Of a stretch of 46,576 bases of DNA, positions 1,541 through 46,136 are shown piece by piece. Location: IMG/VR virus record IMGVR_UViG_3300025732_000004; one strand, given 5' to 3'. The position numbers and the translations under genes were made by a program. The DNA is from a virus. Every line of letters begins with the position of its first letter. The stretch's first letter is position 1. The notes under the pieces were generated by a model. That model was given only the letters and a program-made list of their open reading frames with translations, searched no databases and was not told the origin of the DNA.

Positions 1541-1551
1541 CCGAGGTTGCC
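1541..1551 (-). promoter_or_regulatory. Leader motif copy GGCAACCTCGG, 20 nt upstream of the scaffold GTG
   Basis: Read on the minus strand. Confidence 0.45.
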
Positions 1552-4220: not shown

Positions 4221-4233
4221 CCGAGGTTTCCGG
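4221..4233 (-). promoter_or_regulatory. Leader motif, exact CCGGAAACCTCGG (extended form CCGGAAACCTCGGTAACACCC), 8 nt upstream of the portal GTG
   Basis: Read on the minus strand. Confidence 0.55.
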
Positions 4234-5938: not shown

Positions 5939-5986
5939 GGGGCGCCGCCTGCAGCTTCTACGGCTGATTCTAGCTAGGTAGCTCGT

Positions 5987-6010
5987 GGGGGAGTGGGGGT
6001 AGGGGGAGGG
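5987..6010 (+). other. G-quadruplex-type motif GGGGGAGTGGGGGTAGGGGGAGGG
   Basis: Four G-runs (5, 5, 5 and 3 G) separated by 1-3 nt loops, read directly. It lies in the terL-proximal divergent intergenic region. Confidence 0.5.
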
Positions 6011-19719: not shown

Positions 19720-19973
19720 ACGCGCCGGACCTCGTGAACCAGCCACCCCACTACAAGGAGGGTGCGGTGGAGTGCATCACTGCGCTTGAATCTGCGCTGG
19801 GACGCGATGCCTTCATCGGTTACTGCCAGGGGAACTGCATCAAGTACCTGTGGCGCTGGAAACACAAGGGCGGAATGCAAGATCTGCATAAAGCTCGCTG
19901 GTATCTAGACCGTCTGATCGCTGCTGCTGCTGCTGCTGCCGTATCAGACACTGACGCACCGAGGTGGCCATGA
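19707..19973 (+). CDS. DUF3310 (SaV-like) protein
   Basis: PPHYKEGAVECI...GNCIKYLWRWKHKGGMQDLHKARWYLDRLI matches the family signature. Confidence 0.75.
   Translation: MGALNAPDLVNQPPHYKEGAVECITALESALGRDAFIGYCQGNCIKYLWRWKHKGGMQDLHKARWYLDRLIAAAAAAAVSDTDAPRWP
19920..19937 (+). repeat. (GCT)6 microsatellite encoding a poly-Ala run
   Basis: gctgctgctgctgctgct read directly; with the following GCC it gives seven Ala. Confidence 0.9.
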
Positions 19974-20827
19974 CTGCGCTCACAATCCAAGACGGCACCA
20001 GGCGGTGGGTTGACGAAAAAGCCATCTCGCTGTGCCCGACGTCTCTGACGTCCGACTACCGGCAGTTTCTGACGTGGGTCGATCGGGCGCCGTACACGCG
20101 GCTTGAGGAGGGACGTGACCTCATCGGCTGGGTGCTCAATCAGGAGCCGCCCAAAGCCGCTCGGCGGGTGGCGATGCTCACTAAGGCGTTCTATCGCTGG
20201 GCCGCGGCGGAAGACGTTGGGCTCGTCGCCGTCAATCCGGTGGCCTCGTTCAAGTTCCCCAAGGCGCCACAGAACGACCACGAGGTGACGATCATCCCCA
20301 AGGATCAGGAGCCTTTCGTGATGGCGGCGCTCACGCGGCGGGAGCGTCGTGGGCCCCTCTGGCATCACTGGGCCATGGTGCAACTGCAGCTGGGGCTTCG
20401 CACCGGCGAGGTGCGTGCAATCAGGGCCGATGACATCCGGGGCGAGCGCCTGCGAGTGCATCAAAACTTCACATTGACGCACGGCCTTAAAACCAGCACC
20501 AAGACCAATAAGCCGCGCTGGGTGCCGCTCAACTCCCTGGCGAGAGGAATCCTTGAAGAGCTGACACCAGATGCCGATGGTTTCCTGCTGCCGTGGAATC
20601 GCTCAACCTTCCAGAGCTTCTTCCATGACCGTATGCAGGAACTGCATAACCTCGGCCTGATCACACGCGTGTTCCGCCCTTACGACCTCCGGCACACCGC
20701 TATCACCCGCTGGCTTGAAGCCGGGGTGAGTGTTGCAACCGCCGCTAGCTGGGCTGGCAACACGCCTGAGGTCATCTGGCGGCATTACGCCGGTGCCGAT
20801 GACACCACCCCGCTCCCCGTTATCTGA
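19964..20827 (+). CDS. int: Tyrosine recombinase / integrase
   Basis: LRTGEVRAI (Arg I), YDLRHTAITRW (HxxR), and VIWRHYAG (catalytic Tyr). Confidence 0.9.
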   Translation: MAMTALTIQDGTRRWVDEKAISLCPTSLTSDYRQFLTWVDRAPYTRLEEGRDLIGWVLNQEPPKAARRVAMLTKAFYRWAAAEDVGLVAVNPVASFKFPKAPQNDHEVTIIPKDQEPFVMAALTRRERRGPLWHHWAMVQLQLGLRTGEVRAIRADDIRGERLRVHQNFTLTHGLKTSTKTNKPRWVPLNSLARGILEELTPDADGFLLPWNRSTFQSFFHDRMQELHNLGLITRVFRPYDLRHTAITRWLEAGVSVATAASWAGNTPEVIWRHYAGADDTTPLPVI

Positions 20828-21558: not shown

Positions 21559-21766
21559 CATCACGACTTACAAGCTTGATGCTGCCTTTGTGGCACTGGA
21601 AAAGTTTGACCACTGCGCCAAACCCGACGCCTTCATCGAGGTATCGCTATGGCACAACGGCGAAGGCTTTGATGCACACCTGAGCAGCTACGGCGATCAG
21701 AGCTTCAAGCTCACTTGGGGAGAGTTCAAGGCACTGAAGAAGCTTGTGAAGGAGTTGGACAAATGA
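21551..21766 (+). CDS. Hypothetical small protein (71 aa, MADITTYKLDAAF...)
   Basis: In-frame tail of track ORF 21422..21766. Confidence 0.5.
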   Translation: MADITTYKLDAAFVALEKFDHCAKPDAFIEVSLWHNGEGFDAHLSSYGDQSFKLTWGEFKALKKLVKELDK

Positions 21767-22110
21767 CTGACCAACACCCGATCACCCCACCGCCTGAGCT
21801 AGTGGAGCAGTGGACAAACCAATGGCACCAAGTCCAGGTAAAGCACGTTGAGCTTGAGGATTTCGTTGCCATCCAGGCCGCCCATTGGGGCGCCGACCAG
21901 GAGCTGGAGGCGTGCTGTGAGTGGCTGCGCGAATCTCTGGCGACACCTTCATTGGTGGAGTGCTTTCTCTCCAACCGCCGCCCCAAGCCGCCGAGCTTGA
22001 AGGAGCAGGCGCTGGCTGCTTTGAGCGAAGCAGATCAAGGGTTAAATAAATCTGAATGGCAACAACGCTCCAACACAATCCGCCGCGCACTGGAGCAACT
22101 CACCGACTGA
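21763..22110 (+). CDS. Hypothetical protein, paralog A of the HPITPPPELV family (115 aa)
   Basis: MTDQHPITPPPELVEQW...AIQAAHWGADQELEACCEWL. A paralog lies at 22287..22631. Confidence 0.6.
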   Translation: MTDQHPITPPPELVEQWTNQWHQVQVKHVELEDFVAIQAAHWGADQELEACCEWLRESLATPSLVECFLSNRRPKPPSLKEQALAALSEADQGLNKSEWQQRSNTIRRALEQLTD

Positions 22111-22286: not shown

Positions 22287-22631
22287 ATGACTAACCAACA
22301 CCCGATCACCCCACCGCCGGAGCTGGTGCAGCAGTGGTACAACGAGTGCCCTGAAGCGAACGAGGCTTCCCTTCCTTACGTCGCCATCCAAGCCGCCCGC
22401 TGGGGAGCCGACCAGGAGTTGCTGGCTTGCGGAAAATACCTTGAGCGATGCGCCGCATGGGAAGAAGAAGATGTGACCGAGATGTATGACTACCGCCGAC
22501 CGAGACCGTTGAGCCTGAAGGAGCAGGCACTAGAAGCAGCGCGGCGGTTCTACGCAAAGGGTCATGAAGACTGCACTGACGAAGAGGTCAAAGATGACTT
22601 CGACACCATCCGCCGCGCCCTGGAGGCTTAA
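22287..22631 (+). CDS. Hypothetical protein, paralog B of the HPITPPPELV family (114 aa)
   Basis: MTNQHPITPPPELVQQW...AIQAARWGADQELLACGKYL. Confidence 0.6.
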   Translation: MTNQHPITPPPELVQQWYNECPEANEASLPYVAIQAARWGADQELLACGKYLERCAAWEEEDVTEMYDYRRPRPLSLKEQALEAARRFYAKGHEDCTDEEVKDDFDTIRRALEA

Positions 22632-23130: not shown

Positions 23131-23290
23131 CATCACCCGCTGCCACGGCATCGACTGCCACCAGAAACACCAGTGCGCCAGGCACACCGCGCCGGTCCCC
23201 GACAACGTGCTGTTGTCTTGGGTTGCCACATTGAACCCTGAGCGAGCGCACCTCTGCCCTGACTTCATCGCCACCCGCTCCGCTGACTAA
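23120..23290 (+). CDS. Small Cys/His-rich protein (about 56 aa, ...SDITRCHGIDCHQKHQCARH...LCPDF)
   Basis: My translation. Its stop TAA shares one nt with the sigma ATG (TAATG). Not in the track. Confidence 0.4.
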   Translation: MLSDITRCHGIDCHQKHQCARHTAPVPDNVLLSWVATLNPERAHLCPDFIATRSAD

Positions 23291-24405
23291 TGACAACCCG
23301 CCAGCCTCAGACCAAATCATCCATCTCTCAGTACCTCAACGAGATTGGGGCGCATCCGCTGATGTCACCCAGTGAGGAGATTGAGTGCGGCAGAGCCGTG
23401 AAGCGCATGACAGAGCTGAAACAGGAGGCGCAAGAACGCACCCTCACCAGCAAAGAGCGCCACGCCATCCGCCGCGGCGAACGCGCCAAGAAGCGTTTCA
23501 TCGAAGCCAACCTGCGGCTGGTGGTGCATTGCGCCAAGAAGTACGCCCGCAACTCGCTCCAGTTCACCGAGCTGGGCGACCTCATCCAAGAGGGCTCAAT
23601 CGGCTTGGTGCGGGCGGTGGAGCTGTTTGACCCCGAACGCGGCTACAAGTTCTCCACCTACGCCTACTGGTGGATCCGCCAGGCGATGACCCGCTCTATC
23701 GCTGTCACGGAGTGGGCCATCAAACGCCCATCCACCGTGGGAGAGCTGGCGATGCGGCTGCCCAAGCTGGTGCATACGCTCTCGCACGAGCTGGGGCGGA
23801 CGCCGACCTCCGCTGAGATCGCCAAGGCGGCCAAGGTTTCACTGAGCGAGCTGAACCTGATGTACGAACGGGGGCGGGGGCTGGTGTCCCTTGACGCCTC
23901 CGTCTTGGATCGCGAAGACGGCAGCGGCCTTATCGAGATCATCGCGGACCCCGCCTCCTTCAACAGCGAAGACAACGACGCCGCTCTGGATCTGGAGCTG
24001 AACGAGGCGCGGCTCATTCCCGTCATCGATCAGCTCACCGACGTGGAGCGCCGCATCGTTGAGCTGCGCTATGGGCTCAACGGCAATCAGCCGCAGGCGC
24101 TCAACGCCATCGGCAGGGAGATCGGCGTGTCACGGGAGCGCATCCGGCAGGTGCTGGAGCGGTCCATTCGCCGGATGCGCTTCCTGCTCAATCAGCCTGT
24201 GCTGCCCGGTAACCGTACAGACGAAGCACCAGCCGTAGAAGCCACGGAACACGCGCCGGAACGCAGTAATCAGGCGCTATGGGGGCATCTTGTGCTGGAG
24301 GGGTTGCCGCTTGCGACTCGTAAAGCACAGTGGCAATCTCCAGCTCCGCAATACGGTGCGTGGCCTTCTTCACAATGCTCTGATACAGCATCAGTTGCTG
24401 CGTGA
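23290..24405 (+). CDS. Sigma-70 family sigma factor with regions 1.2, 2, 3 and 4
   Basis: YLNEIGAHPLMSPSEE (region 1.2), FIEANLRLVVHCAKKY...DLIQEGSIGLVRAVELFDPERGYKFSTYAYWWIRQA (region 2), LTDVERRIVELRYGL...IGREIGVSRERIRQVLERSIRRMR (region 4). About 70 codons follow region 4.2. Confidence 0.9.
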   Translation: MTTRQPQTKSSISQYLNEIGAHPLMSPSEEIECGRAVKRMTELKQEAQERTLTSKERHAIRRGERAKKRFIEANLRLVVHCAKKYARNSLQFTELGDLIQEGSIGLVRAVELFDPERGYKFSTYAYWWIRQAMTRSIAVTEWAIKRPSTVGELAMRLPKLVHTLSHELGRTPTSAEIAKAAKVSLSELNLMYERGRGLVSLDASVLDREDGSGLIEIIADPASFNSEDNDAALDLELNEARLIPVIDQLTDVERRIVELRYGLNGNQPQALNAIGREIGVSRERIRQVLERSIRRMRFLLNQPVLPGNRTDEAPAVEATEHAPERSNQALWGHLVLEGLPLATRKAQWQSPAPQYGAWPSSQCSDTASVAA

Positions 24406-24535
24406 GGCTGCACGCAAGCTCCCCTATTTCTTCAGGTTTCTCGCGACTGTTGGCGCGGATAAGTCGCCGCGAATACTCCAGCTGTAACTCCGCGTTAACG
24501 CTGAGTTCTGGCACCATCCACTCGCCGAAACTCAT
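24188..24535 (-). CDS. NblA-like (phycobilisome degradation) domain protein, 115 aa
   Basis: The N-terminal 60 aa (MSFGEWMVPELSVNAELQLEYSRRLIRANSREKPEEIGELACSLTQQLMLYQSIVKK) align by eye with NblA as I recall it (LSVEQQFDLQKYRQQVRDISREDLEDLF...Q.M). The first ATG is at 24535; the track start 24550 is TTG. Confidence 0.4.
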   Translation of the reverse strand: MSFGEWMVPELSVNAELQLEYSRRLIRANSREKPEEIGELACSLTQQLMLYQSIVKKATHRIAELEIATVLYESQAATPPAQDAPIAPDYCVPARVPWLLRLVLRLYGYRAAQAD

Positions 24536-24575
24536 CGTGTCACAAAGCAACCTAGGGCTAACGCAAGGTTGCCCC

Positions 24576-26515: not shown

Positions 26516-26528
26516 CCAAGGTTTCCCC
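26516..26528 (-). promoter_or_regulatory. Leader motif copy GGGGAAACCTTGG, 18 nt upstream of the holin ATG
   Basis: Read on the minus strand, in the fibre-holin gap. Confidence 0.45.
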
Positions 26529-29903: not shown

Positions 29904-29915
29904 CCCTAAGTTGCC
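29904..29915 (-). promoter_or_regulatory. Leader motif copy GGCAACTTAGGG, 21 nt upstream of ATG 29882
   Basis: Read on the minus strand. Confidence 0.4.
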
Positions 29916-30722: not shown

Positions 30723-30733
30723 CCGAGATTGCC
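30723..30733 (-). promoter_or_regulatory. Leader motif copy GGCAATCTCGG, 2 nt upstream of ATG 30720
   Basis: Read on the minus strand. Confidence 0.45.
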
Positions 30734-34806: not shown

Positions 34807-34826
34807 CGCTTTGCCGCTAGGTTGCC
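34807..34826 (-). promoter_or_regulatory. Leader motif copy GGCAACCTAGCGGCAAAGCG, 8 nt upstream of ATG 34798
   Basis: Read on the minus strand, in the 30-nt gap after the 1217-aa gene. Confidence 0.5.
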
Positions 34827-38482: not shown

Positions 38483-39234
38483 CAGAGGATCTGTAGCACT
38501 GTCAGAGTCACGTTGTAACGGGTGGTCTTCACACCGGACACCACCGCAACCTCAGCCGTTGAGGTCGGGGGGCTGATCGGGAACCAACTGCCCGCACTCG
38601 GCACTGCGCCAATGGTGCTGTCGTACCACGCCAGCAAGTTGGGGTAGGTGCCGCTGGAGATGTAGCCCTCCACTTGGCGAACCTTGTGCGCCACCAGCGG
38701 CCCCGTGACGTAGCTGGTGCCTGTTGCGGTCAGCGCCACGTTCGGACCGTCCTGGCGGGTGTCCATGGGCTTGGTCAGCGTCACCGTGACTGCGGTGCCG
38801 CCACTGCCAAAGGTGATCGTGCCGAGGTTGGGCTTGTCCTTGTCTTTGTCCTTCTCGATGCCGCGCAGCAGCACCTGCAGCGCTTGAGCGGCATCCACCA
38901 TCACCACCGTGGCGGAGACAAAGGCGCCGGCTTGCTCACCAGATGGTGGGTCCGCAAACCAACAGGCGAGGTTGGTGACGCTCAGGTTGTTGGTGTTGGT
39001 GATCGTCAGCGCGATCGTGGTGCCGACCACGCCGGAGAGCAGCGTGTCCTGATCCTGGATGCGGGTGCTGCGCCAGCTGTTGTACTCGCTCACCAGCGTC
39101 TGCCACTCGGCGGGGGTGAGCAGACCGCTGATGCGGAATGTGCGGGCGGTGAGGCCGGAGCGGGCTTCACCCTCGTAGCCGAAGGGCTGGGCCGTCAGGC
39201 GGTTGGTGCTGAAGCTGCCGATTGTGACTGTCAT
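38482..39234 (-). CDS. Distal tail protein candidate (250 aa; ATG 39234 overlaps the tape-measure stop, ATGA)
   Basis: Position immediately after the tape measure. Confidence 0.45.
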   Translation of the reverse strand: MTVTIGSFSTNRLTAQPFGYEGEARSGLTARTFRISGLLTPAEWQTLVSEYNSWRSTRIQDQDTLLSGVVGTTIALTITNTNNLSVTNLACWFADPPSGEQAGAFVSATVVMVDAAQALQVLLRGIEKDKDKDKPNLGTITFGSGGTAVTVTLTKPMDTRQDGPNVALTATGTSYVTGPLVAHKVRQVEGYISSGTYPNLLAWYDSTIGAVPSAGSWFPISPPTSTAEVAVVSGVKTTRYNVTLTVLQIL

Positions 39235-42200
39235 TGGACTGCAGAGTTGAGGACGTTGCCAAAGGTCGTAACGCCGCCGCCCGAATCGACGTTCACAGTG
39301 ACCGCCCACGTCTTCTCGGCGAGCTTGCCAACCTGCTTTGCCAAGACACTGTTGACGCCCAGCAGCTCTTTGTTAATAGCTGCAACGTCGGCTTGTGCGG
39401 TTGAGAGGTTATTCCTGCTTTCGTTCTCTTTTTGTACGGCAGTAATAAAGTCGTCAACCTTCTTGAAGCTTGCTACGGATGCGTCTGGGCCGGCAGCGCC
39501 AAAAAAGGGTTTGCCGTTGATAGTGCCGAACTGCTTCTTATCGCCGCGAGAGCCGGCAATAATGCTGCGTAGCTCATTGATCAGACTGTTATCAAGACTG
39601 AGCCCTTGTTCCTTTAGTATCTTGGATGCTATTGATATGGAACGTTCAAGATCCGGGCCAAGGCGTGCGGTGGCTGTATTTAGCCTGACCTGCCGTTGTT
39701 CTGGGCGCAAGAACCGATTAAGCCCCTCGTCAGGATTGGCTTGGATGCCTGATAGCTCAAGCCGTGCTTGCGTCAGGCGATTTGCTGCGCCGGTCACAAC
39801 GTCAGCGATTTGGCGGGCGCCATCAACCATTGCAGTCTTAAAAGCAATCGCAGCAGCTACAAGCTCCTTGCCAGCGGCAAGTTGTTCTGGGCGTGAAGCC
39901 TTTGGATCGTTCAGGAGATTAGAGTAGTTGGTAAAGGCTGCCTGCCTGTCCTTTCGTGCGGCGTCAATAGTGGCCCGGATGTTGTTGATTTCTTGAACTG
40001 GGGCGGGCTTTAGGCGCTCAACCTGCTGCCTTAAATAAGCTCTGCGCTCTTCTTGGTTGGCAAACAGGTCTTTCTTGGCTTGCTCGCGAATGCTGGCGGC
40101 CTTGCTGGGGTTATCTTTGATGGCAAGATCACGGTCGCGAATGATCTTTTGCTGTTGCAGGTAGAACAGCTGGAGCTTGTACCCCTGCGCGGTGGCTTGG
40201 GTGATCCTGTAGTCCAGTTGGCTGGCAGCAGCTCTCTCCTTTGCCAGAGCAACGGCGCGGGCCTCAAGGGCGTTGATCTCCTGCTGAGTTCGGCGCTGAC
40301 GGTCAGCGATGACCCCACGCTGCCGTGCTTCGTCTAGCGCAACCTTGTTGGCGGTTTCGACATCAGGGACAACCTTAAAAGCGGCTAGCGTATTACGTCT
40401 CAGCAGAATCTGAGCCGCGGCCTGTTGACCATACTGAGCTTTAACGTCATCAACAGTTGTACGAAAATCTCCCTCCCCTATGCGCTGATTAGCTCCGGGC
40501 CCTGTGGGTTTACCCCCTAAGGCGCGATTTAGCACTCCCAGCAAAGCCGCCATTGGTCCTGCTACTAGCTTTGCTGTGGTAACTCCCAGCTCCGAGTAGG
40601 TGCGGTTCAACTCGTCCTGAGCTGCGGCCAGATTATTGATTTCCTTGGTGCTGCCAAAACGCTTGACAAAGTCTATTTGGATCTGGAGCGCAGCCTCTGC
40701 TGTCTTTCCGTTATCAATAAGGTTCTGGATATTCTTCTCAACAGCACGCGACGACAGTAGAGCGGCTTCCTTAAGTGCCTGGAAGCTTTCTACTGGCTTG
40801 TTTAACGCGTCGCCAATGGTCTTCAGCTTGGCAAGGGCGGCATCAAACTGGGCGCCAACGGCGGTGCCGAGCAGCGACAGTCCAAAGCCAAAGTTTCCGC
40901 CCAGCTTGCCGCCGGTGAAGCCGCCCAAGCTACCGCCCAAGCTGGCGCCCAGACCTTGACCAAATAGCAGCGGGAATGCGCCACCAATCAGGGCGTCGCC
41001 CAGTGCAGCATTGGAACGCTGCGCACCCTGCAGCCGACGCTGCGCACCCTGCAGCCGACGCTGCCGCGCCAGATCCGCAGGTGAGCCTGGAATCACTTGT
41101 CCGTTAATCAGGCGTCCGCTGACGGGGATCGCTGGACCTCGTATCTGAGCTTGCGTTGCTTGCCGGGCAATGTCTGCTGGTGAGCCCGGTATCACGCGCC
41201 CGTTGATCAGGCGCCCAGAAACGGGTAGCGATGGGCCACCACGACGCTCAAGGTCGCGTTGAGCTTTGGCTTGCGCTTGTGTTGCGGCTAGCTTTTCTCT
41301 CGCAACGGTCAGCTGGTCACGGAGCTGTTGCGTGATCTGTTTGGCCGTGCCAAGTTCACCAGTCCTAAGTGCACTATCTAGATCTGCGTATAGCTTCTTG
41401 ATCTGCGTTACATCAGCGCCTTGGCGTTGAAGTTGTAGCCCTGCTGCGCCAATGCTCAACTGCGCCGATTGCAGCGAAGCTCTTGTCGCTAAGGAGCTAG
41501 CGGGGCCACCCTGCCCGGCGCGGCGTGCTTCTTGGCGACGCTGCTCCTCAAGAAACGCTGGTGAGCCAGGTAGATCCTTGCGACCACGAATGGGCTCGCT
41601 AGGCCCACCGACTCGGGCAGCGCGATCCGTCAGACGCTGCAGTTCGCGGGTGCGGCGGAGGCGCGCCTCGGTCAGCGTCACTTGCTGTCCAAGCTGAGCA
41701 GTGATCTGACGGGCGCTGCCAAACTGGCGCTCAGCTAATGCGGTATCAAGCTGCGCCAGCCGAATCTGGAGCGCCCCCACATTTGCGCCTTGCTGCTGCA
41801 GCCGCGCAATTCGCTGGTCAAGTGCGAATCGACGCTGCTGAGCACGCTCGTTTGCCAACAGTGACTCCGAAGCGCCGCCCTGACGCGCACCACGATCCAA
41901 GATCTGGCGGCGCAGACGCTCCCGGGCTTCTAGAAACGCCGGAGAGCCAGGGATGTTTCGGCTGCCGCGAATAGAGTCACGCGGACCTCCAGCAGTAGCC
42001 GATGCTCTGAGCTGGCGTTCTTCGCGACGGCGCTGCTCCGCAAGGAACCGCGGAGATCCGGGGAGGTCAAGCCGCCCTTGGATGGGCTCGCGGGGGCCTC
42101 CGAGCCGAGCTGTGCGCTCAACTGCACGCTGAACATCGCGCTCACGCCGAGCGCGTGCTTCCGTCAAAGTGACTTGCCGCTCCAGCTCACGGGACAGCTG

Positions 42201-42911
42201 GCGGGCAGTTCCGAACTGACGCTGCGCATAGGAGGTGGTCAGCTCGCCCAGCTGGCGCCGGAGCGACTGTGTTGCGACACCACGCTCCTCAAGCCGCTCA
42301 ATTCGCTGCGAAATCTTGAAGCGGCGATCCTGCGCTCGCTCCAACGCAAAGATTGACTCGCGGGCTCCCCCCATCGCAGCACCGACCGCTGCGTTCTGGC
42401 GCTGCACACGCTCCTGACGCCGGAGGGTAGCTAATCGGCGCTCCTCCAACGTGATCTGGCGGGCTAGCTCCTGCCCACGCTGCCGGAATGACCCAAACTG
42501 ACGGCGGGATTGCGCCTCGGTCAAAGCGCCCAGTTGGACGCGCAGACGGGCGACATTGGCGCCCTGCTCCTCCAGCGTGTCAATCCGCCGGGCCAGGCGG
42601 AACCGGCGCTCTTGCGCAATCTCTAGGGCGCGTACACCTTCACGCGCACCACCCTGTCGCGCTGCTCGGTCAATGCGCCGTTGCTCCTCTGCGTCTGCCC
42701 TACGGCGACGCCGATCCGCAGCTTCTTGTTGACGCTGCTGGCGGTTGATCTCGTTGGCAGCAGCGCTGGCAGAAGAACGGGTTTGGCCAGGACGCCCAGT
42801 GACGTCGCCCAGCTGCTGCTGAATTAGCTGACGCGCCTGCCGAAGGCTCTCCTCAAACGCACGGATGTCAACTGTTAGCCGTAGCTGAGCCTCGCCTAGG
42901 TTCTCCGCCAC
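39231..42911 (-). CDS. Tape measure protein (1226 aa)
   Basis: Very long, Arg/Gln/Ala/Leu-rich and coiled-coil-like, with modular repeats. It has a Gly-rich hydrophobic block GGAFPLLFGQGLGASLGGSLGGFTGGKLGGNFGFGLSLLG and lies upstream of the tail-tip genes. Confidence 0.85.
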   Translation of the reverse strand: MAENLGEAQLRLTVDIRAFEESLRQARQLIQQQLGDVTGRPGQTRSSASAAANEINRQQRQQEAADRRRRRADAEEQRRIDRAARQGGAREGVRALEIAQERRFRLARRIDTLEEQGANVARLRVQLGALTEAQSRRQFGSFRQRGQELARQITLEERRLATLRRQERVQRQNAAVGAAMGGARESIFALERAQDRRFKISQRIERLEERGVATQSLRRQLGELTTSYAQRQFGTARQLSRELERQVTLTEARARRERDVQRAVERTARLGGPREPIQGRLDLPGSPRFLAEQRRREERQLRASATAGGPRDSIRGSRNIPGSPAFLEARERLRRQILDRGARQGGASESLLANERAQQRRFALDQRIARLQQQGANVGALQIRLAQLDTALAERQFGSARQITAQLGQQVTLTEARLRRTRELQRLTDRAARVGGPSEPIRGRKDLPGSPAFLEEQRRQEARRAGQGGPASSLATRASLQSAQLSIGAAGLQLQRQGADVTQIKKLYADLDSALRTGELGTAKQITQQLRDQLTVAREKLAATQAQAKAQRDLERRGGPSLPVSGRLINGRVIPGSPADIARQATQAQIRGPAIPVSGRLINGQVIPGSPADLARQRRLQGAQRRLQGAQRSNAALGDALIGGAFPLLFGQGLGASLGGSLGGFTGGKLGGNFGFGLSLLGTAVGAQFDAALAKLKTIGDALNKPVESFQALKEAALLSSRAVEKNIQNLIDNGKTAEAALQIQIDFVKRFGSTKEINNLAAAQDELNRTYSELGVTTAKLVAGPMAALLGVLNRALGGKPTGPGANQRIGEGDFRTTVDDVKAQYGQQAAAQILLRRNTLAAFKVVPDVETANKVALDEARQRGVIADRQRRTQQEINALEARAVALAKERAAASQLDYRITQATAQGYKLQLFYLQQQKIIRDRDLAIKDNPSKAASIREQAKKDLFANQEERRAYLRQQVERLKPAPVQEINNIRATIDAARKDRQAAFTNYSNLLNDPKASRPEQLAAGKELVAAAIAFKTAMVDGARQIADVVTGAANRLTQARLELSGIQANPDEGLNRFLRPEQRQVRLNTATARLGPDLERSISIASKILKEQGLSLDNSLINELRSIIAGSRGDKKQFGTINGKPFFGAAGPDASVASFKKVDDFITAVQKENESRNNLSTAQADVAAINKELLGVNSVLAKQVGKLAEKTWAVTVNVDSGGGVTTFGNVLNSAVQ
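41017..41058 (-). repeat. Perfect 21-bp tandem duplication inside the tape measure (encodes RRLQGAQ twice)
   Basis: cgctgcgcaccctgcagccga occurs twice (41017-41037 and 41038-41058), followed by a partial third unit. Confidence 0.9.
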
Positions 42912-42934: not shown

Positions 42935-42945
42935 GCGAGATTGCC
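42935..42945 (-). promoter_or_regulatory. Leader motif copy GGCAATCTCGC, 23 nt upstream of the tape-measure GTG
   Basis: Read on the minus strand; sits back-to-back with the plus-strand copy at 42947. Confidence 0.45.
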
Positions 42946-42946
42946 G

Positions 42947-42959
42947 CCGGAAACCTCGG
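42947..42959 (+). promoter_or_regulatory. Leader motif, exact CCGGAAACCTCGG, 2 nt upstream of ATG 42962
   Basis: Read directly. Confidence 0.55.
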
Positions 42960-42961
42960 TC

Positions 42962-43351
42962 ATGGCTTCCGCTCTCTCCGCTTTATCCAACGCCACCGCC
43001 ACTTTTCAGGTGGCGGGCACGGGCGTGGTCACTGACCCGGAAACAGGGAACGTGTCGCCCGCGGGAGCCACGGTCACAGTGGCGTTGTTCCTGAGCGCCG
43101 CACAGACGCGGGTGCTGCGGTACCCAGGAGTTGATACCACGGAGACCGTCTACGAAGGCTATGCCTTGGACGCGCTAGACCCTCGTATTGAGATCGGCGT
43201 TACAGGTGTCCTGACGTTTGCGGGGGAGCCGACGCTTGATTGCGAAGTGCGCTCTGTTCGTCTGCCTTACGGGAAGACGGGGCTGCTCGGCGAGACCCTC
43301 AACAGCGTGCTTGGCGAGAAGGTGCAGCTGGTGAGCAGAGGCCAAGCGTGA
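42962..43351 (+). CDS. Hypothetical head-tail joining-region protein (129 aa from ATG 42962; the track TTG start is 42941)
   Basis: ORF with good composition, in the opposite orientation to the surrounding structural genes. Confidence 0.55.
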   Translation: MASALSALSNATATFQVAGTGVVTDPETGNVSPAGATVTVALFLSAAQTRVLRYPGVDTTETVYEGYALDALDPRIEIGVTGVLTFAGEPTLDCEVRSVRLPYGKTGLLGETLNSVLGEKVQLVSRGQA

Positions 43352-43836
43352 CGGTCGCCATCAAGCAGTGGAACGCCGCAAGGTTGCTAGCGAAAGTTGC
43401 AACCACGCTTGAGAAGTCCGGTGCCGTCTACAGCGAGACGGCAGTGCTACAGATGTCCAACCCCATATGGGACTGGGACTGGGCGACGCTGCGCTATGAA
43501 AGCCTGTTGATGGGGGGTACGCGTGAGCCCGGTCGTCTTGGCGTAATCGTTGGTAAGGGGCCGCGGGACATCGTAGATACAGGGCGCCTGCTGGATTCGA
43601 TGACGAAACCACTCGTGATCCGAGAGCGAGGCAAAGCGTCTATGGTCATTGCGTGGACAGCTCCTTATGCCGAGCGGGTGCGGACCGGTGGGTATTACGG
43701 TTCCTACATCAACCCGCGTGGCCAAGAAGTCACTGTCGGCTACAGGCCGGGCCGCGATTGGATCGCCGCCACCTTCAAAGCCAGGCCGGCAGAGCGGGTG
43801 TTTGCCGACATCTGGCGCAGTTTCAAGGGCACATAA
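43348..43836 (+). CDS. HK97 gp10-like neck/tail-completion protein (162 aa; GTG 43348 overlaps the upstream stop)
   Basis: GPRDIVDTGRLLDSM resembles the P-x-D-T-G-x-L-x-x-S signature of the HK97 gp10 family. Confidence 0.5.
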   Translation: MTVAIKQWNAARLLAKVATTLEKSGAVYSETAVLQMSNPIWDWDWATLRYESLLMGGTREPGRLGVIVGKGPRDIVDTGRLLDSMTKPLVIRERGKASMVIAWTAPYAERVRTGGYYGSYINPRGQEVTVGYRPGRDWIAATFKARPAERVFADIWRSFKGT

Positions 43837-43839
43837 AAA

Positions 43840-43870
43840 GGCCAGCCCCCACGCTGGGAAGGGGCTAGCC
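43840..43870 (-). terminator. Terminator after the tail tube gene (bidirectional position)
   Basis: ggccagcccc (43840-43849) pairs with ggggctagcc (43861-43870) with one mismatch. The aaaaa at 43835-43839 becomes a U-run after the hairpin on the minus strand. Confidence 0.5.
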
Positions 43871-43898: not shown

Positions 43899-44375
43899 TC
43901 AGACGTTGGTCTCTGCGGTCCAAGTGTAGGCGCCGTAGCCGGTGAGAGTGAAGCTCACCTGGGCAATGTTGCCGGCTTGGATGTCCTCAGAGAAGTCGGT
44001 TACGAACGCAACGCCGGCGTGCTTCTCTGGGTTGCCGGTGGCGCTCATCTCGGGCGACTCGCGATACCACTCCACCGTCTTGGTGCTGGAGTTGAGTGCC
44101 GCGTCCTTCAGAATGGCGTAGCCGGCGTCATTCAGGTCCAGGTTCATCTGGCACGGAATGCTGTAGCTCTGCGATACCGGAATCTGGGCCTTGAAGCCCT
44201 GGGTCGAGCCGTAGTCCAGCACTTCCTGGGTGTCGGTGCTGCCTTGGATGCCGGCATTCACCAGCGACAGCACCTCGGTCATGCCGGTGCTAGTCGTTGG
44301 TGCGGTGCTGGAGGTGGTGCCAGCCTTCACGTAAAACTTATACCCCAGCGAGGCAAAAAAGGCGCCGGTGGCCAT
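43899..44375 (-). CDS. Major tail (tube) protein
   Basis: 158 aa with beta-rich composition, lying between the connector-region genes and the tape measure. It has a strong terminator downstream, as the capsid gene does. Confidence 0.55.
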   Translation of the reverse strand: MATGAFFASLGYKFYVKAGTTSSTAPTTSTGMTEVLSLVNAGIQGSTDTQEVLDYGSTQGFKAQIPVSQSYSIPCQMNLDLNDAGYAILKDAALNSSTKTVEWYRESPEMSATGNPEKHAGVAFVTDFSEDIQAGNIAQVSFTLTGYGAYTWTAETNV

Positions 44376-44390: not shown

Positions 44391-44410
44391 GGGTTACCGC
44401 TAGGTTTCCC
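44391..44410 (-). promoter_or_regulatory. Leader motif copy GGGAAACCTAGCGGTAACCC, 15 nt upstream of the tail tube ATG
   Basis: Read on the minus strand, in the 36-nt gap. Confidence 0.55.
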
Positions 44411-44411
44411 T

Positions 44412-44966
44412 CTAGGCGCAGTCCTCGGCTTCCAAAACGTCCCATGGCGTGGGGCGGGGGCAGACGTAGAGGTCGAAGCCGCGCACGTCGTGGTCTGTGG
44501 GGCTGGTGGCCACTAGCGCCAACTTCACCTGCTCCTGCGTCACGCCCAGCTCTATGCACACCTCGGGCAGGGCGCGGCCACGCTCCAGCATCTTTCGCGC
44601 CAGCTGCCCGATCCGGCGTACAGCGCCTGGCGCCTTCACAGACCAGTTGCCGTCCCGGATGAAGTGCAGCACGTCGCCCTCGCTGAAGGCGGTGAGGAGC
44701 GTGGAGAAGCGGCCCTTGGCGGGGTCGAAGGCGCGGCAGCACTTCACAAACGCTTGGTCAATGCAGCTAAAGACGTCGCTGCTATCGACGAAGGGGTACT
44801 TGCGGCACAGCTTGCGGCCCAGCAGGCGCAACAGCCCTTGGTGTTCGCGGTACATCCGCGCCACATGGCGCTGCTCTTCCGGTGTCAGTGGCGTGGCTAA
44901 GTAACCGGTGCGGGGGCGTCGCCGGACCGGTTGAGCACTACCTGTAGTGGGGGTGCAGTTTGCCAT
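44412..44966 (-). CDS. Sigma-70 region 2/region 3-like protein lacking region 4 (184 aa)
   Basis: LLRLLGRKLCRKYPFVDSSDVFSCIDQAFVKCCRAFDPAKGRFSTLLTAFSEGDVLHFIRDGNWSVKAP...GRALPEVCIELGVTQEQV aligns with regions 2 and 3 of the 371-aa sigma in this window (LVVHCAKKY...[21 protein letters not shown]...IKRPS...GRTPTSAEIAKAAKVS). The protein ends before any region 4. Confidence 0.6.
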   Translation of the reverse strand: MANCTPTTGSAQPVRRRPRTGYLATPLTPEEQRHVARMYREHQGLLRLLGRKLCRKYPFVDSSDVFSCIDQAFVKCCRAFDPAKGRFSTLLTAFSEGDVLHFIRDGNWSVKAPGAVRRIGQLARKMLERGRALPEVCIELGVTQEQVKLALVATSPTDHDVRGFDLYVCPRPTPWDVLEAEDCA

Positions 44967-44997
44967 CCACTACCCATAGTAGCGGCTAGATGCGTAC

Positions 44998-45567
44998 CTA
45001 ACTGCGTTGGACTGCGCAGACGCCACCTAGCCCGCCGCGGGTCGTGCTGGTGCATAGGCAGCCCAAGATGGTGGCGAGGTGCGGCAGCACTGTCAGGGGC
45101 GTCACCGCCTCGGTCGTGGAGTTACCGACGTTGGTATTCCACTCAAGCTCCATGACGTCGAGCTTCAGGCGCTTCAGGTCGCGGTTGGGGATGCCGGGCA
45201 CCAGCGCGGTAGAGGCGTTGGCGCTCCGCAGCAGCGTCGGTGTCGTCAGCAGCGCATTGGCGAGGTCAAACGTCGCTAGCTCGATCTCGCGGGGGATCTC
45301 GTCGTCAGCGGGGGCCTTGTCGCCGCACTCGGCGTCGGTGCGGGGCCACGACAGCGCTTGTGTCGGAGTGGCGCGGTCGCCGATCCAGCTCAGCGTCTCT
45401 AGGCCGTTGGTGGCGGTGATCAGGGCGCGGGCTTTGTCGTCGCTGGTGGCGGTGCTCCACGCCAAGGTGCCCAACATGCCGTTGGCGATGCTGTCGGCAC
45501 CGGCGACGCTCAGGTAGCTGTTGGCGCTGGCGCTGCCGGCAGTCGCAACAATCGCAGGGGCGGGCAT
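44998..45567 (-). CDS. Head-tail connector/adaptor protein
   Basis: N-terminal ...ANSYLSVAGADSIA...W...DDKARALITATNGLE...LSWPR resembles gp6-like/DnaT_2-type head-tail adaptors. The position also fits. Confidence 0.5.
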   Translation of the reverse strand: MPAPAIVATAGSASANSYLSVAGADSIANGMLGTLAWSTATSDDKARALITATNGLETLSWIGDRATPTQALSWPRTDAECGDKAPADDEIPREIELATFDLANALLTTPTLLRSANASTALVPGIPNRDLKRLKLDVMELEWNTNVGNSTTEAVTPLTVLPHLATILGCLCTSTTRGGLGGVCAVQRS

Positions 45568-45582
45568 CGCTTTGCGTTATTC

Positions 45583-45595
45583 CCGAGGTTTCCGG
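45583..45595 (-). promoter_or_regulatory. Leader motif, exact CCGGAAACCTCGG, 15 nt upstream of the connector ATG
   Basis: Read on the minus strand. Confidence 0.55.
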
Positions 45596-45597
45596 TG

Positions 45598-45729
45598 TCA
45601 GCCGCGGCCCTGGCCGCGCCACTTCTTGCGGCCGTGGTTCGCCTTGCTGTGCTGGCCCTGGCCTTGGCGGGTGCGCTTTGGCTTGCCCGGCACATGCTCA
45701 GTGCGGGTGGCGGCTTTGGCTTTGGCCAT
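45598..45729 (-). CDS. Very basic small protein (43 aa, MAKAKAATRTEHVPGKPKRTRQGQGQHSKANHGRKKWRGQGRG)
   Basis: My translation, verified codon by codon. Third positions are G/C-rich and the leader motif lies 9 nt upstream. Not in the track. Confidence 0.45.
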   Translation of the reverse strand: MAKAKAATRTEHVPGKPKRTRQGQGQHSKANHGRKKWRGQGRG

Positions 45730-45738
45730 GGCGTTTCC

Positions 45739-45751
45739 CCGATCTTTCCGG
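45739..45751 (-). promoter_or_regulatory. Leader motif copy CCGGAAAGATCGG, 9 nt upstream of ATG 45729
   Basis: Read on the minus strand. Confidence 0.45.
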
Positions 45752-45757
45752 TGTCGG

Positions 45758-45769
45758 GGCAACTTCGGG
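45758..45769 (+). promoter_or_regulatory. Leader motif copy GGCAACTTCGGG, 19 nt upstream of ATG 45789
   Basis: Read directly; sits back-to-back with the copy at 45739-45751. Confidence 0.45.
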
Positions 45770-45788: not shown

Positions 45789-46088
45789 ATGACTGAAAAC
45801 GCCCCCGAAATCAGCAACGAGCTGGTGTCAGAAGCACCTAAGCCGGTGCGTAAGAAAGCGGCGAAGGCGGCTCCTGCGGCTGAGGGTGGTGGGAAGCGCG
45901 ACTGGCAGAAGGTGGTGCCTGAGATCCGGCGTTTGCGCGATGAAGGGCGCAATGTGCCTGAGATCGCGGAGGAGCTGGAGTTGCCCTACGTGCTCGTCAA
46001 TCAGGTGATGCTCCAGAGCTACAAGATGACCGTCAACACCATTGAGCACTTTGAGCGGCACGAAGAGCGTCGCATTGCTGGGGAGTGA
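45789..46088 (+). CDS. Small HTH protein (99 aa from MTENAPEISNE)
   Basis: VVPEIRRLRDEGRNVPEIAEELELPYVLVNQVM resembles a sigma region 4 or resolvase-type HTH. The upstream part of the track ORF (from 45678) looks non-coding. Confidence 0.5.
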   Translation: MTENAPEISNELVSEAPKPVRKKAAKAAPAAEGGGKRDWQKVVPEIRRLRDEGRNVPEIAEELELPYVLVNQVMLQSYKMTVNTIEHFERHEERRIAGE

Positions 46089-46099
46089 GGCATAAAAAA

Positions 46100-46120
46100 G
46101 CCCCCGCTTGTGGCGGGGGC
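46100..46120 (-). terminator. Rho-independent terminator after the major capsid gene (between convergent genes)
   Basis: gcccccgc (46100-46107), loop ttgtg, gcgggggc (46113-46120). The aaaaaa at 46094-46099 gives a U-run on the minus strand. Confidence 0.7.
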
Positions 46121-46136
46121 CTGAGTGATTCGCAAC

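Follow-up and report, generated by a model that had tools for sequence, protein, structure and literature searches.

A sigma-like protein without region 4 in the head-tail module of an uncultured siphovirus, and a motif repeated upstream of its late genes

In the viral sequence IMGVR_UViG_3300025732_000004 (46,576 nucleotides (nt); this whole stretch is called the window below), an open reading frame (ORF) at 44412..44966 on the minus strand lies among genes for head and tail proteins, and its product of 184 amino acids (aa), here called sigma184, resembles part of a sigma factor. The question raised by this locus is what such a protein does there: whether it directs transcription, whether it needs a second protein for this, as was proposed in a preliminary description of the sequence, or whether it serves another purpose. 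The explanation that we find best, and to which we give about an even chance, is that sigma184 is a late sigma factor which lacks region 4 and reads promoters consisting of a -10 element only, functionally like gp55 of phage T4.

Sigma regions 2 and 3 without region 4

The ORF of sigma184 starts with ATG and has a composition of the coding type (G+C content of 0.82 at third and 0.49 at second codon positions, GC3 and GC2), with the third-position bias of the real genes in the window. Searched alone, the protein matched PHROG 351, 'RNA polymerase sigma factor', over residues 37-152 (E=1.6e-8) and no sigma model in Pfam; the signal comes from PHROGs, from the profile of its family and from structure. 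By BLASTP it aligned with the full-length 371-aa sigma encoded in the window itself (E=5e-5), the stretch FDPxxGxFST included, and hhalign placed residues 44-149 of the family profile on residues 76-190 of the 371-aa sigma. The matched part comprises Pfam r2 (70-138) and the first half of r3 (156-226), i.e. regions 2 to 3.1, which bears out the alignment with regions 2 and 3 given in the preliminary description. In PDB the family profile matched S. aureus SigB (8x6g_H, chain residues 31-159, E=6e-7) and also Geobacillus SigF, and the best cellular model was that of SigB/SigF/SigG (TIGR02980; 20.1 bits, E=4e-4, model positions 32-130), with a score that does not reach the curated cut-off of 234 bits. 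When 34 members of the family were aligned (alignment A1), 30 of them matched Pfam Sigma70_r2 and none matched a Pfam r4 model. Sigma70_r3 itself was matched neither by sigma184 alone nor by the 34-member family; region 3 is seen in the profile alignments, which extend through residue 159 of SigB and residue 190 of the 371-aa sigma. The AlphaFold2 (AF2) model of sigma184 is all-helical (predicted local distance difference test, pLDDT, 76.7), and all its top Foldseek matches in PDB and BFVD were sigma factors (probability 1.0, E ~1e-4 to 4e-3).

Sigma184 is thus a genuine protein of the sigma-70 family with regions 2 and 3.0/3.1 and a short 3.2-like linker, and without region 4. Given that the protein continues for only 35 residues beyond the region 3.1 match and that 36 nt separate the stop codon from the next gene, region 4 is truly absent and has not been frameshifted away. 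That the product ends before region 4, as had been described, holds for the family as a whole, which is uniformly short (~146-196 aa) across more than 140 protein clusters of 51-96% identity.

The protein begins with a basic N-terminal extension outside the sigma match (residues 1-27; 44886..44966, minus strand as for all parts of the gene), which carries the conserved stretch RPRTGYLATPL. Residues G21, L23, P26 and L27 are nearly invariant in alignment A1, and a similar 'PLT..Q' motif is found in the distant short relatives P0143-P0149. Residues ~28-105 (44652..44885) correspond to regions 1.2-like and 2.1-2.4 in the alignments with SigB, SigF and the 371-aa sigma and contain FDPAKGRFST and GDVLHFIRD; residues 29-105 are helical in the model (pLDDT 86-90). 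Region 3.0/3.1 (residues ~106-155; 44502..44651) consists of the WSVKAPGAVRRIG helix and a small helix-turn-helix (HTH), aligned with residues ~110-159 of SigB, with SigF and, by hhalign, with residues 144-190 of the 371-aa sigma; its helices (114-154) reach a pLDDT of 95. The last part (44415..44501) is a flexible region 3.2-like linker, DHDxRGFDLxxCPRPTPW, followed by a short acidic C-terminal helix. In the model residues 158-169 are disordered (pLDDT <50) and the final helix spans 174-183; H159, F164, C169, R171 and P174 are invariant in alignment A1. Strong conservation is also seen in regions 2.3/2.4/3.0 at F87, S88, T89, G97, H101, I103, R104, D105, W108, A112, P113 and R117.

Relatives of sigma184 were found at 167 IMG/VR loci from many metagenomes, and some of them carry the label 'specialized sigma subunit' from the JGI pipeline. 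No homologue was found in isolate phages, where tblastn matched only the full-length sigmas of S-CRES1/2. The upstream neighbour in the window is the head-tail adaptor gene Ad1 (44998..45567, minus strand; PHROG 477, E=2e-29; Pfam DnaT_2, E=6e-25), and the downstream neighbour is the gene for the major tail (tube) protein, MTP (43899..44375, minus strand; PHROG 38654, E=1e-14; PHROG 1407, E=2e-11). In 85 of 85 related loci these three genes lay next to each other and were colinear, and the sigma gene indeed sits inside the head-tail module, as had been described. The distant short homologue P0146 again lies directly after an Ad1-like gene, and another, P0143 (locus L096), is divergent from the portal gene and away from the tail genes. 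Three longer proteins (P0153, P0155 and P0156; 291-359 aa) match cyanobacterial SigF models over regions 2-3 only and continue with unrelated C-terminal sequence; they may be other sigma derivatives without region 4 that have different C-terminal domains.

A motif upstream of the late genes

On reading the intergenic regions, a recurring sequence was first noticed as GGAAACCTCGG before Ad1, MTP and antiB, the last being a gene that is read from the other strand and situated between those for MTP and the tape measure. The 11-nt motif can be written GG[A/C]AA[C/T]CT[A/C]GG. The pattern GG[AC]AA[ACT][CT]T[ACT]G occurs 13 times in the window against 2.1 expected, and 24 copies of the 11-mer with at most two mismatches were found against 12.4 expected, a count reached in none of 100 shuffles. 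Twelve of the 13 copies are intergenic and precede the starts of late genes by 13-38 nt (scaffold, portal, Ad1, MTP, tape measure, antiB, the gene for a 99-aa HTH protein, and five others), and a variant precedes the capsid gene. The motif was absent from the early region at 6-24 kb and from the sequences before sigma184, terL and the RpoD-like 371-aa sigma.

The copy GGAAACCTCGG at 45583..45593 (minus strand) stands 26 nt upstream of Ad1, at the head of the Ad1-sigma184-MTP unit, and is found at the same place in relatives. Directly after the stop codon of sigma184, GGAAACCTAGC (44399..44409, minus strand) precedes MTP by 34 nt; the motif before MTP is kept in practically every relative and also at the distant loci L089 and L094. 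On the plus strand, GGAAACCTCGG (42949..42959) is 13 nt upstream of antiB, counted from G1 to the A of ATG, and this spacing is kept in 33 distinct antiB orthologues. Back-to-back with it lies GGCAATCTCG (42936..42945, minus strand), 34 nt upstream of the tape-measure gene. Further copies are GGCAACTTCGG (45758..45768, plus strand), which precedes the 99-aa HTH gene by 31 nt, GGAAACCTCGG 19 nt upstream of the portal gene (4221..4231, minus strand) and one at the scaffold gene (1541..1551, minus strand), in addition to those at 24564..24573, 26516..26526, 29906..29915, 30723..30733 and 34817..34826 (all minus strand).

Two very short divergent intergenic regions each contain a back-to-back pair of motifs, one for each direction, and the pairs are kept in relatives though the flanks diverge. 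The motif is the only conserved element in both of these regions, where the genes on opposite strands must have promoters of their own. Across 368 distinct motif contexts no conserved block was found upstream of the motif, which argues against a -35 partner. Counted from G1, the start codon was either exactly 13 nt or 26-37 nt away, and never less than 13 nt apart from one dubious case. Shine-Dalgarno sequences were considered and rejected as an identity for the motif: it resembles the anti-Shine-Dalgarno strand and not its complement, its spacing is 13-38 nt, and it is absent from early genes.

The motif was found together with sigma184-like genes even in distant clades. It is enriched 4-10 fold in relatives of 49-61% G+C and in the 42%-identical locus L089, and in the P0146 clade (L094) GGCAAGCTAGG stands right after the sigma-like gene. 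In L096, with its divergent P0143 sigma, shifted variants (GGCACCTTTG and GGAACCTTAG, and GGAACATTCGG at 13 nt) precede the tape-measure, portal, MTP and antisense genes, and in some relatives the motif starts with GGTAA variants. Phage KBS-S-2A, the nearest isolate, which has an RpoD-like sigma and no sigma184 homologue, contains one match against 2.9 expected.

In the spacer between Ad1 and sigma184 a TAnnnT (-10-like) hexamer is found instead of the late motif. In the window this is TACTAT (44976..44981, minus strand), 9 nt upstream of the ATG, a candidate for a separate promoter of sigma184. Among 44 distinct relatives, most have a hexamer of this type (TACACT, TAGACT, TACTAT, TAGTAT or TAGGCT) at 5-9 nt from the ATG, which is suggestive of such a promoter. 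A scan of 42.8-46.3 kb for strict sigma-70 consensus promoters called none, the region upstream of sigma184 included. Intrinsic terminators (both minus strand) follow the capsid gene (46098..46122), where the capsid operon is separated from the Ad1-sigma184-MTP unit, and the MTP gene (43842..43857), where MTP and antiA converge. Because of these two terminators, a small ORF, Ad1, sigma184 and MTP form a unit of their own.

The terminase gene is likewise without the late motif. Its upstream region (5939..6010, minus strand) contains CTACCTAGCTAGAAT with a TAGAAT -10-like hexamer, and its CTAG-rich flanks resemble the region before sigma184. The two upstream regions may represent a second class of promoters.

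What may read the motif

In sigma factors, region 2 binds the clamp helices of beta' and both recognises and opens the -10 element, the extended -10 position is recognised by region 3.0, and region 4 reads the -35 element and binds the flap (PMC7892883, PMC3173786). A sigmaA holoenzyme without region 4.2 is active on promoters that have only a -10 element (PMC3173786), T4 gp55 is a natural late sigma without region 4 (PMC7892883), and SigF of Synechocystis, a group-3 sigma, reads a -12 element GGTAA (PMC2532724). Against this background, the late motif is plausible as the target of sigma184, in the spirit of the preliminary suggestion that the protein reads a motif. The protein would derive from a group-3 sigma (SigB/SigF/SigG-type) that has permanently lost region 4, and would bind the core of the host RNA polymerase through its regions 2 and 3. 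Late promoters would consist of the single element GG-NAAYYT-(A/C)GG, an extended -10-type site for which no -35 contact is needed, with GG as the extended -10 position (region 3.0), NAAYYT as the -10 hexamer (regions 2.3/2.4), and A4 and T8 of the motif at the -11A and -7T positions. With a discriminator of 5 nt, transcription would start at the A of the antiB ATG, so that the antiB mRNA would be leaderless, and late leaders in general would be 0-25 nt long. Such promoters would serve the portal, scaffold, adaptor, tail-tube, tape-measure and other virion genes together with three genes on the opposite strand.

A cascade could start since the sigma184 gene has a TAnnnT hexamer of its own. Sigma184 would first be made from this hexamer by host SigA or by the RpoD-like sigma of the phage and would then be amplified from the late promoter before Ad1, the predicted order being host or phage RpoD-type sigma, sigma184, late genes. 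The 371-aa sigma retains YWWIRQAMTRSI, a motif typical of readers of TATAAT, and for this reason it more plausibly reads TAnnnT sites, such as the one before sigma184, than the late motif; it is a candidate early or middle sigma upstream of sigma184 in the cascade.

Several observations weigh against this explanation. The aromatic residues that melt DNA in region 2.3 (Y430 and W433 of sigma70) are replaced in sigma184 by L (L90) and V/A (A/V93), and the core-binding QEG of region 2.2 by SC(I/D). No flap-binding co-factor analogous to gp33 was recognised among the genes of the window, nor were region-4, gp33-like or clamp proteins, of which divergent analogues could be missed. A G+C-rich motif is unusual as a -10 element. 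A late sigma encoded inside a late operon requires the additional putative TAnnnT promoter, which was not called by the strict scan. Of the 34 cases of 13-nt spacing, 33 are antiB orthologues, so the spike at this distance represents one orthologous gene and is not independent evidence for leaderless starts. The motif occurs in nearly every late intergenic spacer of at least 25 nt, and it could be an RNA-level signal for translation or processing in long late transcripts. The link between motif and sigma184 is also weak, being drawn from co-occurrence in the clade, one real negative control and the elimination of the RpoD-like sigma.

Sigma184 could instead be a competitor or decoy, which binds the RNA polymerase core (or a host anti-sigma factor or a SigF-dependent site) and does not initiate. 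It would then shut off or re-tune host transcription, for instance the SigF regulon of type IV pili and motility. Its gene would resemble a moron, transcribed from a promoter of its own within a temperate phage's late operon, and the motif would be read otherwise or be an RNA signal. The TAnnnT hexamer in place of a late motif before sigma184, the integrase encoded by the phage, the descent from SigB/F/G-type sigmas and the acidic C-terminal tails in the wider short clade would all fit a decoy, and the loss of region 4 together with the replacement of the region 2.3 aromatics might be tolerable for a competitor that does not initiate. However, the DNA-contacting regions 2.4 and 3.0 are among the most conserved parts of the protein, and no terminator follows the gene, so that sigma184 is not a self-contained moron. 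Furthermore, the late motif is not RpoD-like and needs a reader, for which sigma184 is the only other sigma-like protein, and motif and protein co-occur down to distant clades. We consider a decoy unlikely.

The preliminary description had suggested a split sigma, in which sigma184 supplies regions 2/3 and a 99-aa protein encoded 0.8 kb away (45789..46088, plus strand) supplies a region-4-like module that reads the -35 element and binds the flap, as in SigO-RsoA of B. subtilis. In that pair, as would be so here, sigma function resides in a polypeptide with only one of the two domains that read DNA. The gene exists at this position, its product contains the quoted peptide and an HTH, and a late motif precedes it; its likeness to region 4 did not stand, since the similarity is to HTH proteins in general. 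In PDB the profile of the 99-aa family matched generic HTH proteins only, and in Pfam 5 of 20 members gave weak matches to HTH_23 and 2 of 20 touched Sigma70_r4_2 at E ~0.1, which falls short of a significant similarity to region 4. In 74 related loci that span capsid, Ad1 and the sigma gene, the HTH gene was missing from 34, and in 24 of these 34 there is no room for it because the gap between capsid and Ad1 is 280 nt or less. Its presence tracks the type of capsid and not the sigma gene (capsid identity 69-86%, or 47-48%, in loci with the gene and 28-50% in loci without it), and in L096, where the sigma gene has moved, no HTH gene lies alongside it. None of 24 other small ORFs in the window had a region-4 or co-activator domain, and the motif has no -35-like element for such a module to read. 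The comparative data thus do not show a split sigma with the nearby HTH protein, which is rejected as the partner since it is facultative across loci and without significant region-4 similarity, and we regard the arrangement as very improbable.

Least credible of all is a sigma fold recruited as a neck or tail-completion component. In all 85 loci sigma184 does fill the place in which genes for head closure and tail completion are usually found in siphoviruses, and other recognisable neck genes were not found among the window genes. Its fold, however, is the all-helical one of sigma factors with conserved DNA- and core-contacting regions, and unlike its structural neighbours it has no late motif. 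In L096, moreover, the tail module has kept the two antisense genes, whose products are the likelier neck or chaperone proteins, but not the sigma184 homologue, an arrangement which argues that sigma184 is not a structural neck piece.

For a late sigma without region 4, the comparison with T4 gp55 made in the preliminary description is apt. That protein binds the clamp helices of RNA polymerase and directs it to a -10-only late promoter that is repeated before many late genes (PMC7892883, PMC2988020), and sigma184 is likewise small, encoded by a phage, devoid of region 4 and associated with a single-element motif before many late genes. No relationship between the two was detected in sequence or fold searches, with no gp55 among the PHROG matches or the top 50 BFVD fold matches. 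Unlike gp55, sigma184 retains region 3 and a clear similarity to group-3 sigmas, its motif is G+C-rich and not TATAAATA, a gp33-like or clamp (gp45) gene was not recognised in its phage, and its carrier is a siphovirus of the temperate type with the gene inside the structural module.

Among cellular sigmas, SigB/SigF/SigG (TIGR02980), and especially cyanobacterial SigF, gave the best profile, structure and family matches and have the GEIxxF(I/L)RD...VxAP pattern in common with sigma184. They differ in having region 4, and the score of sigma184 is 20 bits against the cut-off of 234. The -12 GGTAA element of SigF resembles the GG-N-AA start of the late motif, whereas SigF also needs a -32 element, which late-motif sites lack. 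Primary sigmas engineered to lack region 4 serve extended -10 or -10-only promoters; sigmaA without region 4.2 initiates without a -35 element and offers a mechanistic basis for how sigma184 could work (PMC3173786); those truncations are laboratory constructs of a group-1 sigma, whereas sigma184 is natural, conserved, derived from group 3 and equipped with extra N- and C-terminal motifs. It differs from SigO-RsoA in having no co-conserved partner, the candidate HTH gene being facultative.

Phage SPO1 uses a sigma cascade of gp28 and then gp33/gp34. Like SPO1, the sigma184 phage has at least two sigma-like proteins, which plausibly act one after the other, with the difference that the order of use is here deduced only from promoter-like sequences. 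The SPO1 sigmas are named in PMC9429907.

In the literature searched, no description was found of this family without region 4, of its fixed place in the head-tail module or of the associated motif; 'sigma subunit' is a label that relatives of sigma184 already carry from automated pipelines. Taken at its widest, the proposal is that sigma184 is a natural minimal sigma (regions 2 and 3) which arose independently of T4 gp55, its ancestor being a group-3 sigma of the cyanobacterial type. It would alone reprogram the host RNA polymerase to an 11-bp, G+C-rich late promoter without a -35 element that yields mRNAs with short leaders or none, as the late system of a widespread clade of uncultured, probably freshwater cyanobacterial siphoviruses, with the basic N-terminal and acidic C-terminal motifs replacing region 4 or a gp33-type co-factor. 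We put this forward tentatively, at somewhat less than even chances. If true, the task of running a late programme with a sigma that has no domain for the -35 element, as T4 gp55 does, would have been solved a second time in an independent line of evolution, here with region 3 retained and without obvious co-activators. The compact pair of a 184-aa sigma and an 11-bp promoter could serve studies of region-4-independent initiation on cyanobacterial RNA polymerase and possibly as an orthogonal expression part, and the motif would be a candidate late-promoter signature for this large group of uncultured phages (more than 140 clusters, 167 IMG/VR loci).

The phage, its host and neighbouring genes

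The window behaves like a circularly permuted siphovirus genome of ~46.6 kb (63% G+C) in which the capsid gene runs off both ends. The genes for terminase, portal, MuF, scaffold, capsid, Ad1, sigma184, MTP, tape measure, tail proteins and endolysin are on one strand, and the rest of the window encodes a primase, a family-A DNA polymerase, an integrase, an exonuclease, SSB and the RpoD-like sigma. The nearest isolates are cyanosiphoviruses: by the terminase, KBS-S-2A, S-H1 and P-HS2 (40-43% identity), and by the full-length sigma, S-CBS1/3 and KBS-S-2A; megablast of half the window against INPHARED gave no match. A scan of GTDB genomes returned only three contigs of metagenome-assembled genomes, whose bins conflict (Rhodoferax, unclassified and a cyanobacterium). 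Because these bins disagree, the host was deduced from the phage relatives and the cyanoRpoD-like sigma, and it is likely a cyanobacterium.

Two conserved genes on the plus strand separate MTP from the tape measure. The first, antiB (42962..43351, with 42962 as the true start), encodes a beta-rich protein of ~129 aa, and antiA (43348..43836) encodes a protein of ~162 aa with an invariant R-D-I-V-D-T-G motif; the stop codon of antiB and the start of antiA overlap (GTGA). The missing neck, tail-completion or chaperone proteins may be encoded here, though neither product matched sequences in Pfam, PHROG or PDB. The tape-measure candidate (39231..42911, minus strand; 1226 aa) has a GTG start 34 nt after its late motif and almost no family match, and its N-terminal half contains many Arg/Gln-rich repeats (...RFxLxQRIxxLEExGA...GGPxExIxGRxDLPGSPxFLE...). 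Just upstream of Ad1 lies a small, extremely basic ORF, MAKAKAATRTEHVPGKPKRTRQGQGQHSKANHGRKKWRGQGRG (45598..45762, minus strand, probable start 45728), which matched no family and is conserved in some relatives. The junction between capsid and Ad1 is, in relatives further removed, a hotspot for insertions (L004 4176..9171; L005 3255..9171; L006 1829..9351), which include a diversity-generating retroelement (bAvd, RVT_1 and Lcl_C target-like genes) and a tyrosine integrase.

The window has a tyrosine integrase gene of its own (19964..20827, plus strand; PHROG 1, E=1e-32), which makes a temperate phage probable. Directly before this gene, at ~19930-19960, stands a (CAG)n-type run, gcagcagcagcagcagcag. 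Rfam and tRNA scans of the window gave no matches.

The full-length sigma (23290..24405, plus strand; 371 aa) has Pfam r1.2, r2, r3 and r4, and its top NCBIfam model is Sig70-cyanoRpoD, the cyanobacterial RpoD/SigA subfamily (263 bits). It is cyanobacterial RpoD/SigD-like, with homologues on two other contigs that bear sigma184. Its last ~70 codons are overlapped by a 115-aa ORF (24188..24535, minus strand) that is preceded by the late motif at 24564..24573. The overlapped part of the sigma ORF is past region 4, which ends at residue 297, and one of the two overlapping models is probably too long. Upstream of the sigma gene, the neighbouring ORFs at 21715..22110 and 22287..22631 (both plus strand) are paralogues with similar starts (...DQHPITPPPELV.QW...) and ends (...LKEQAL...IRRALE..).

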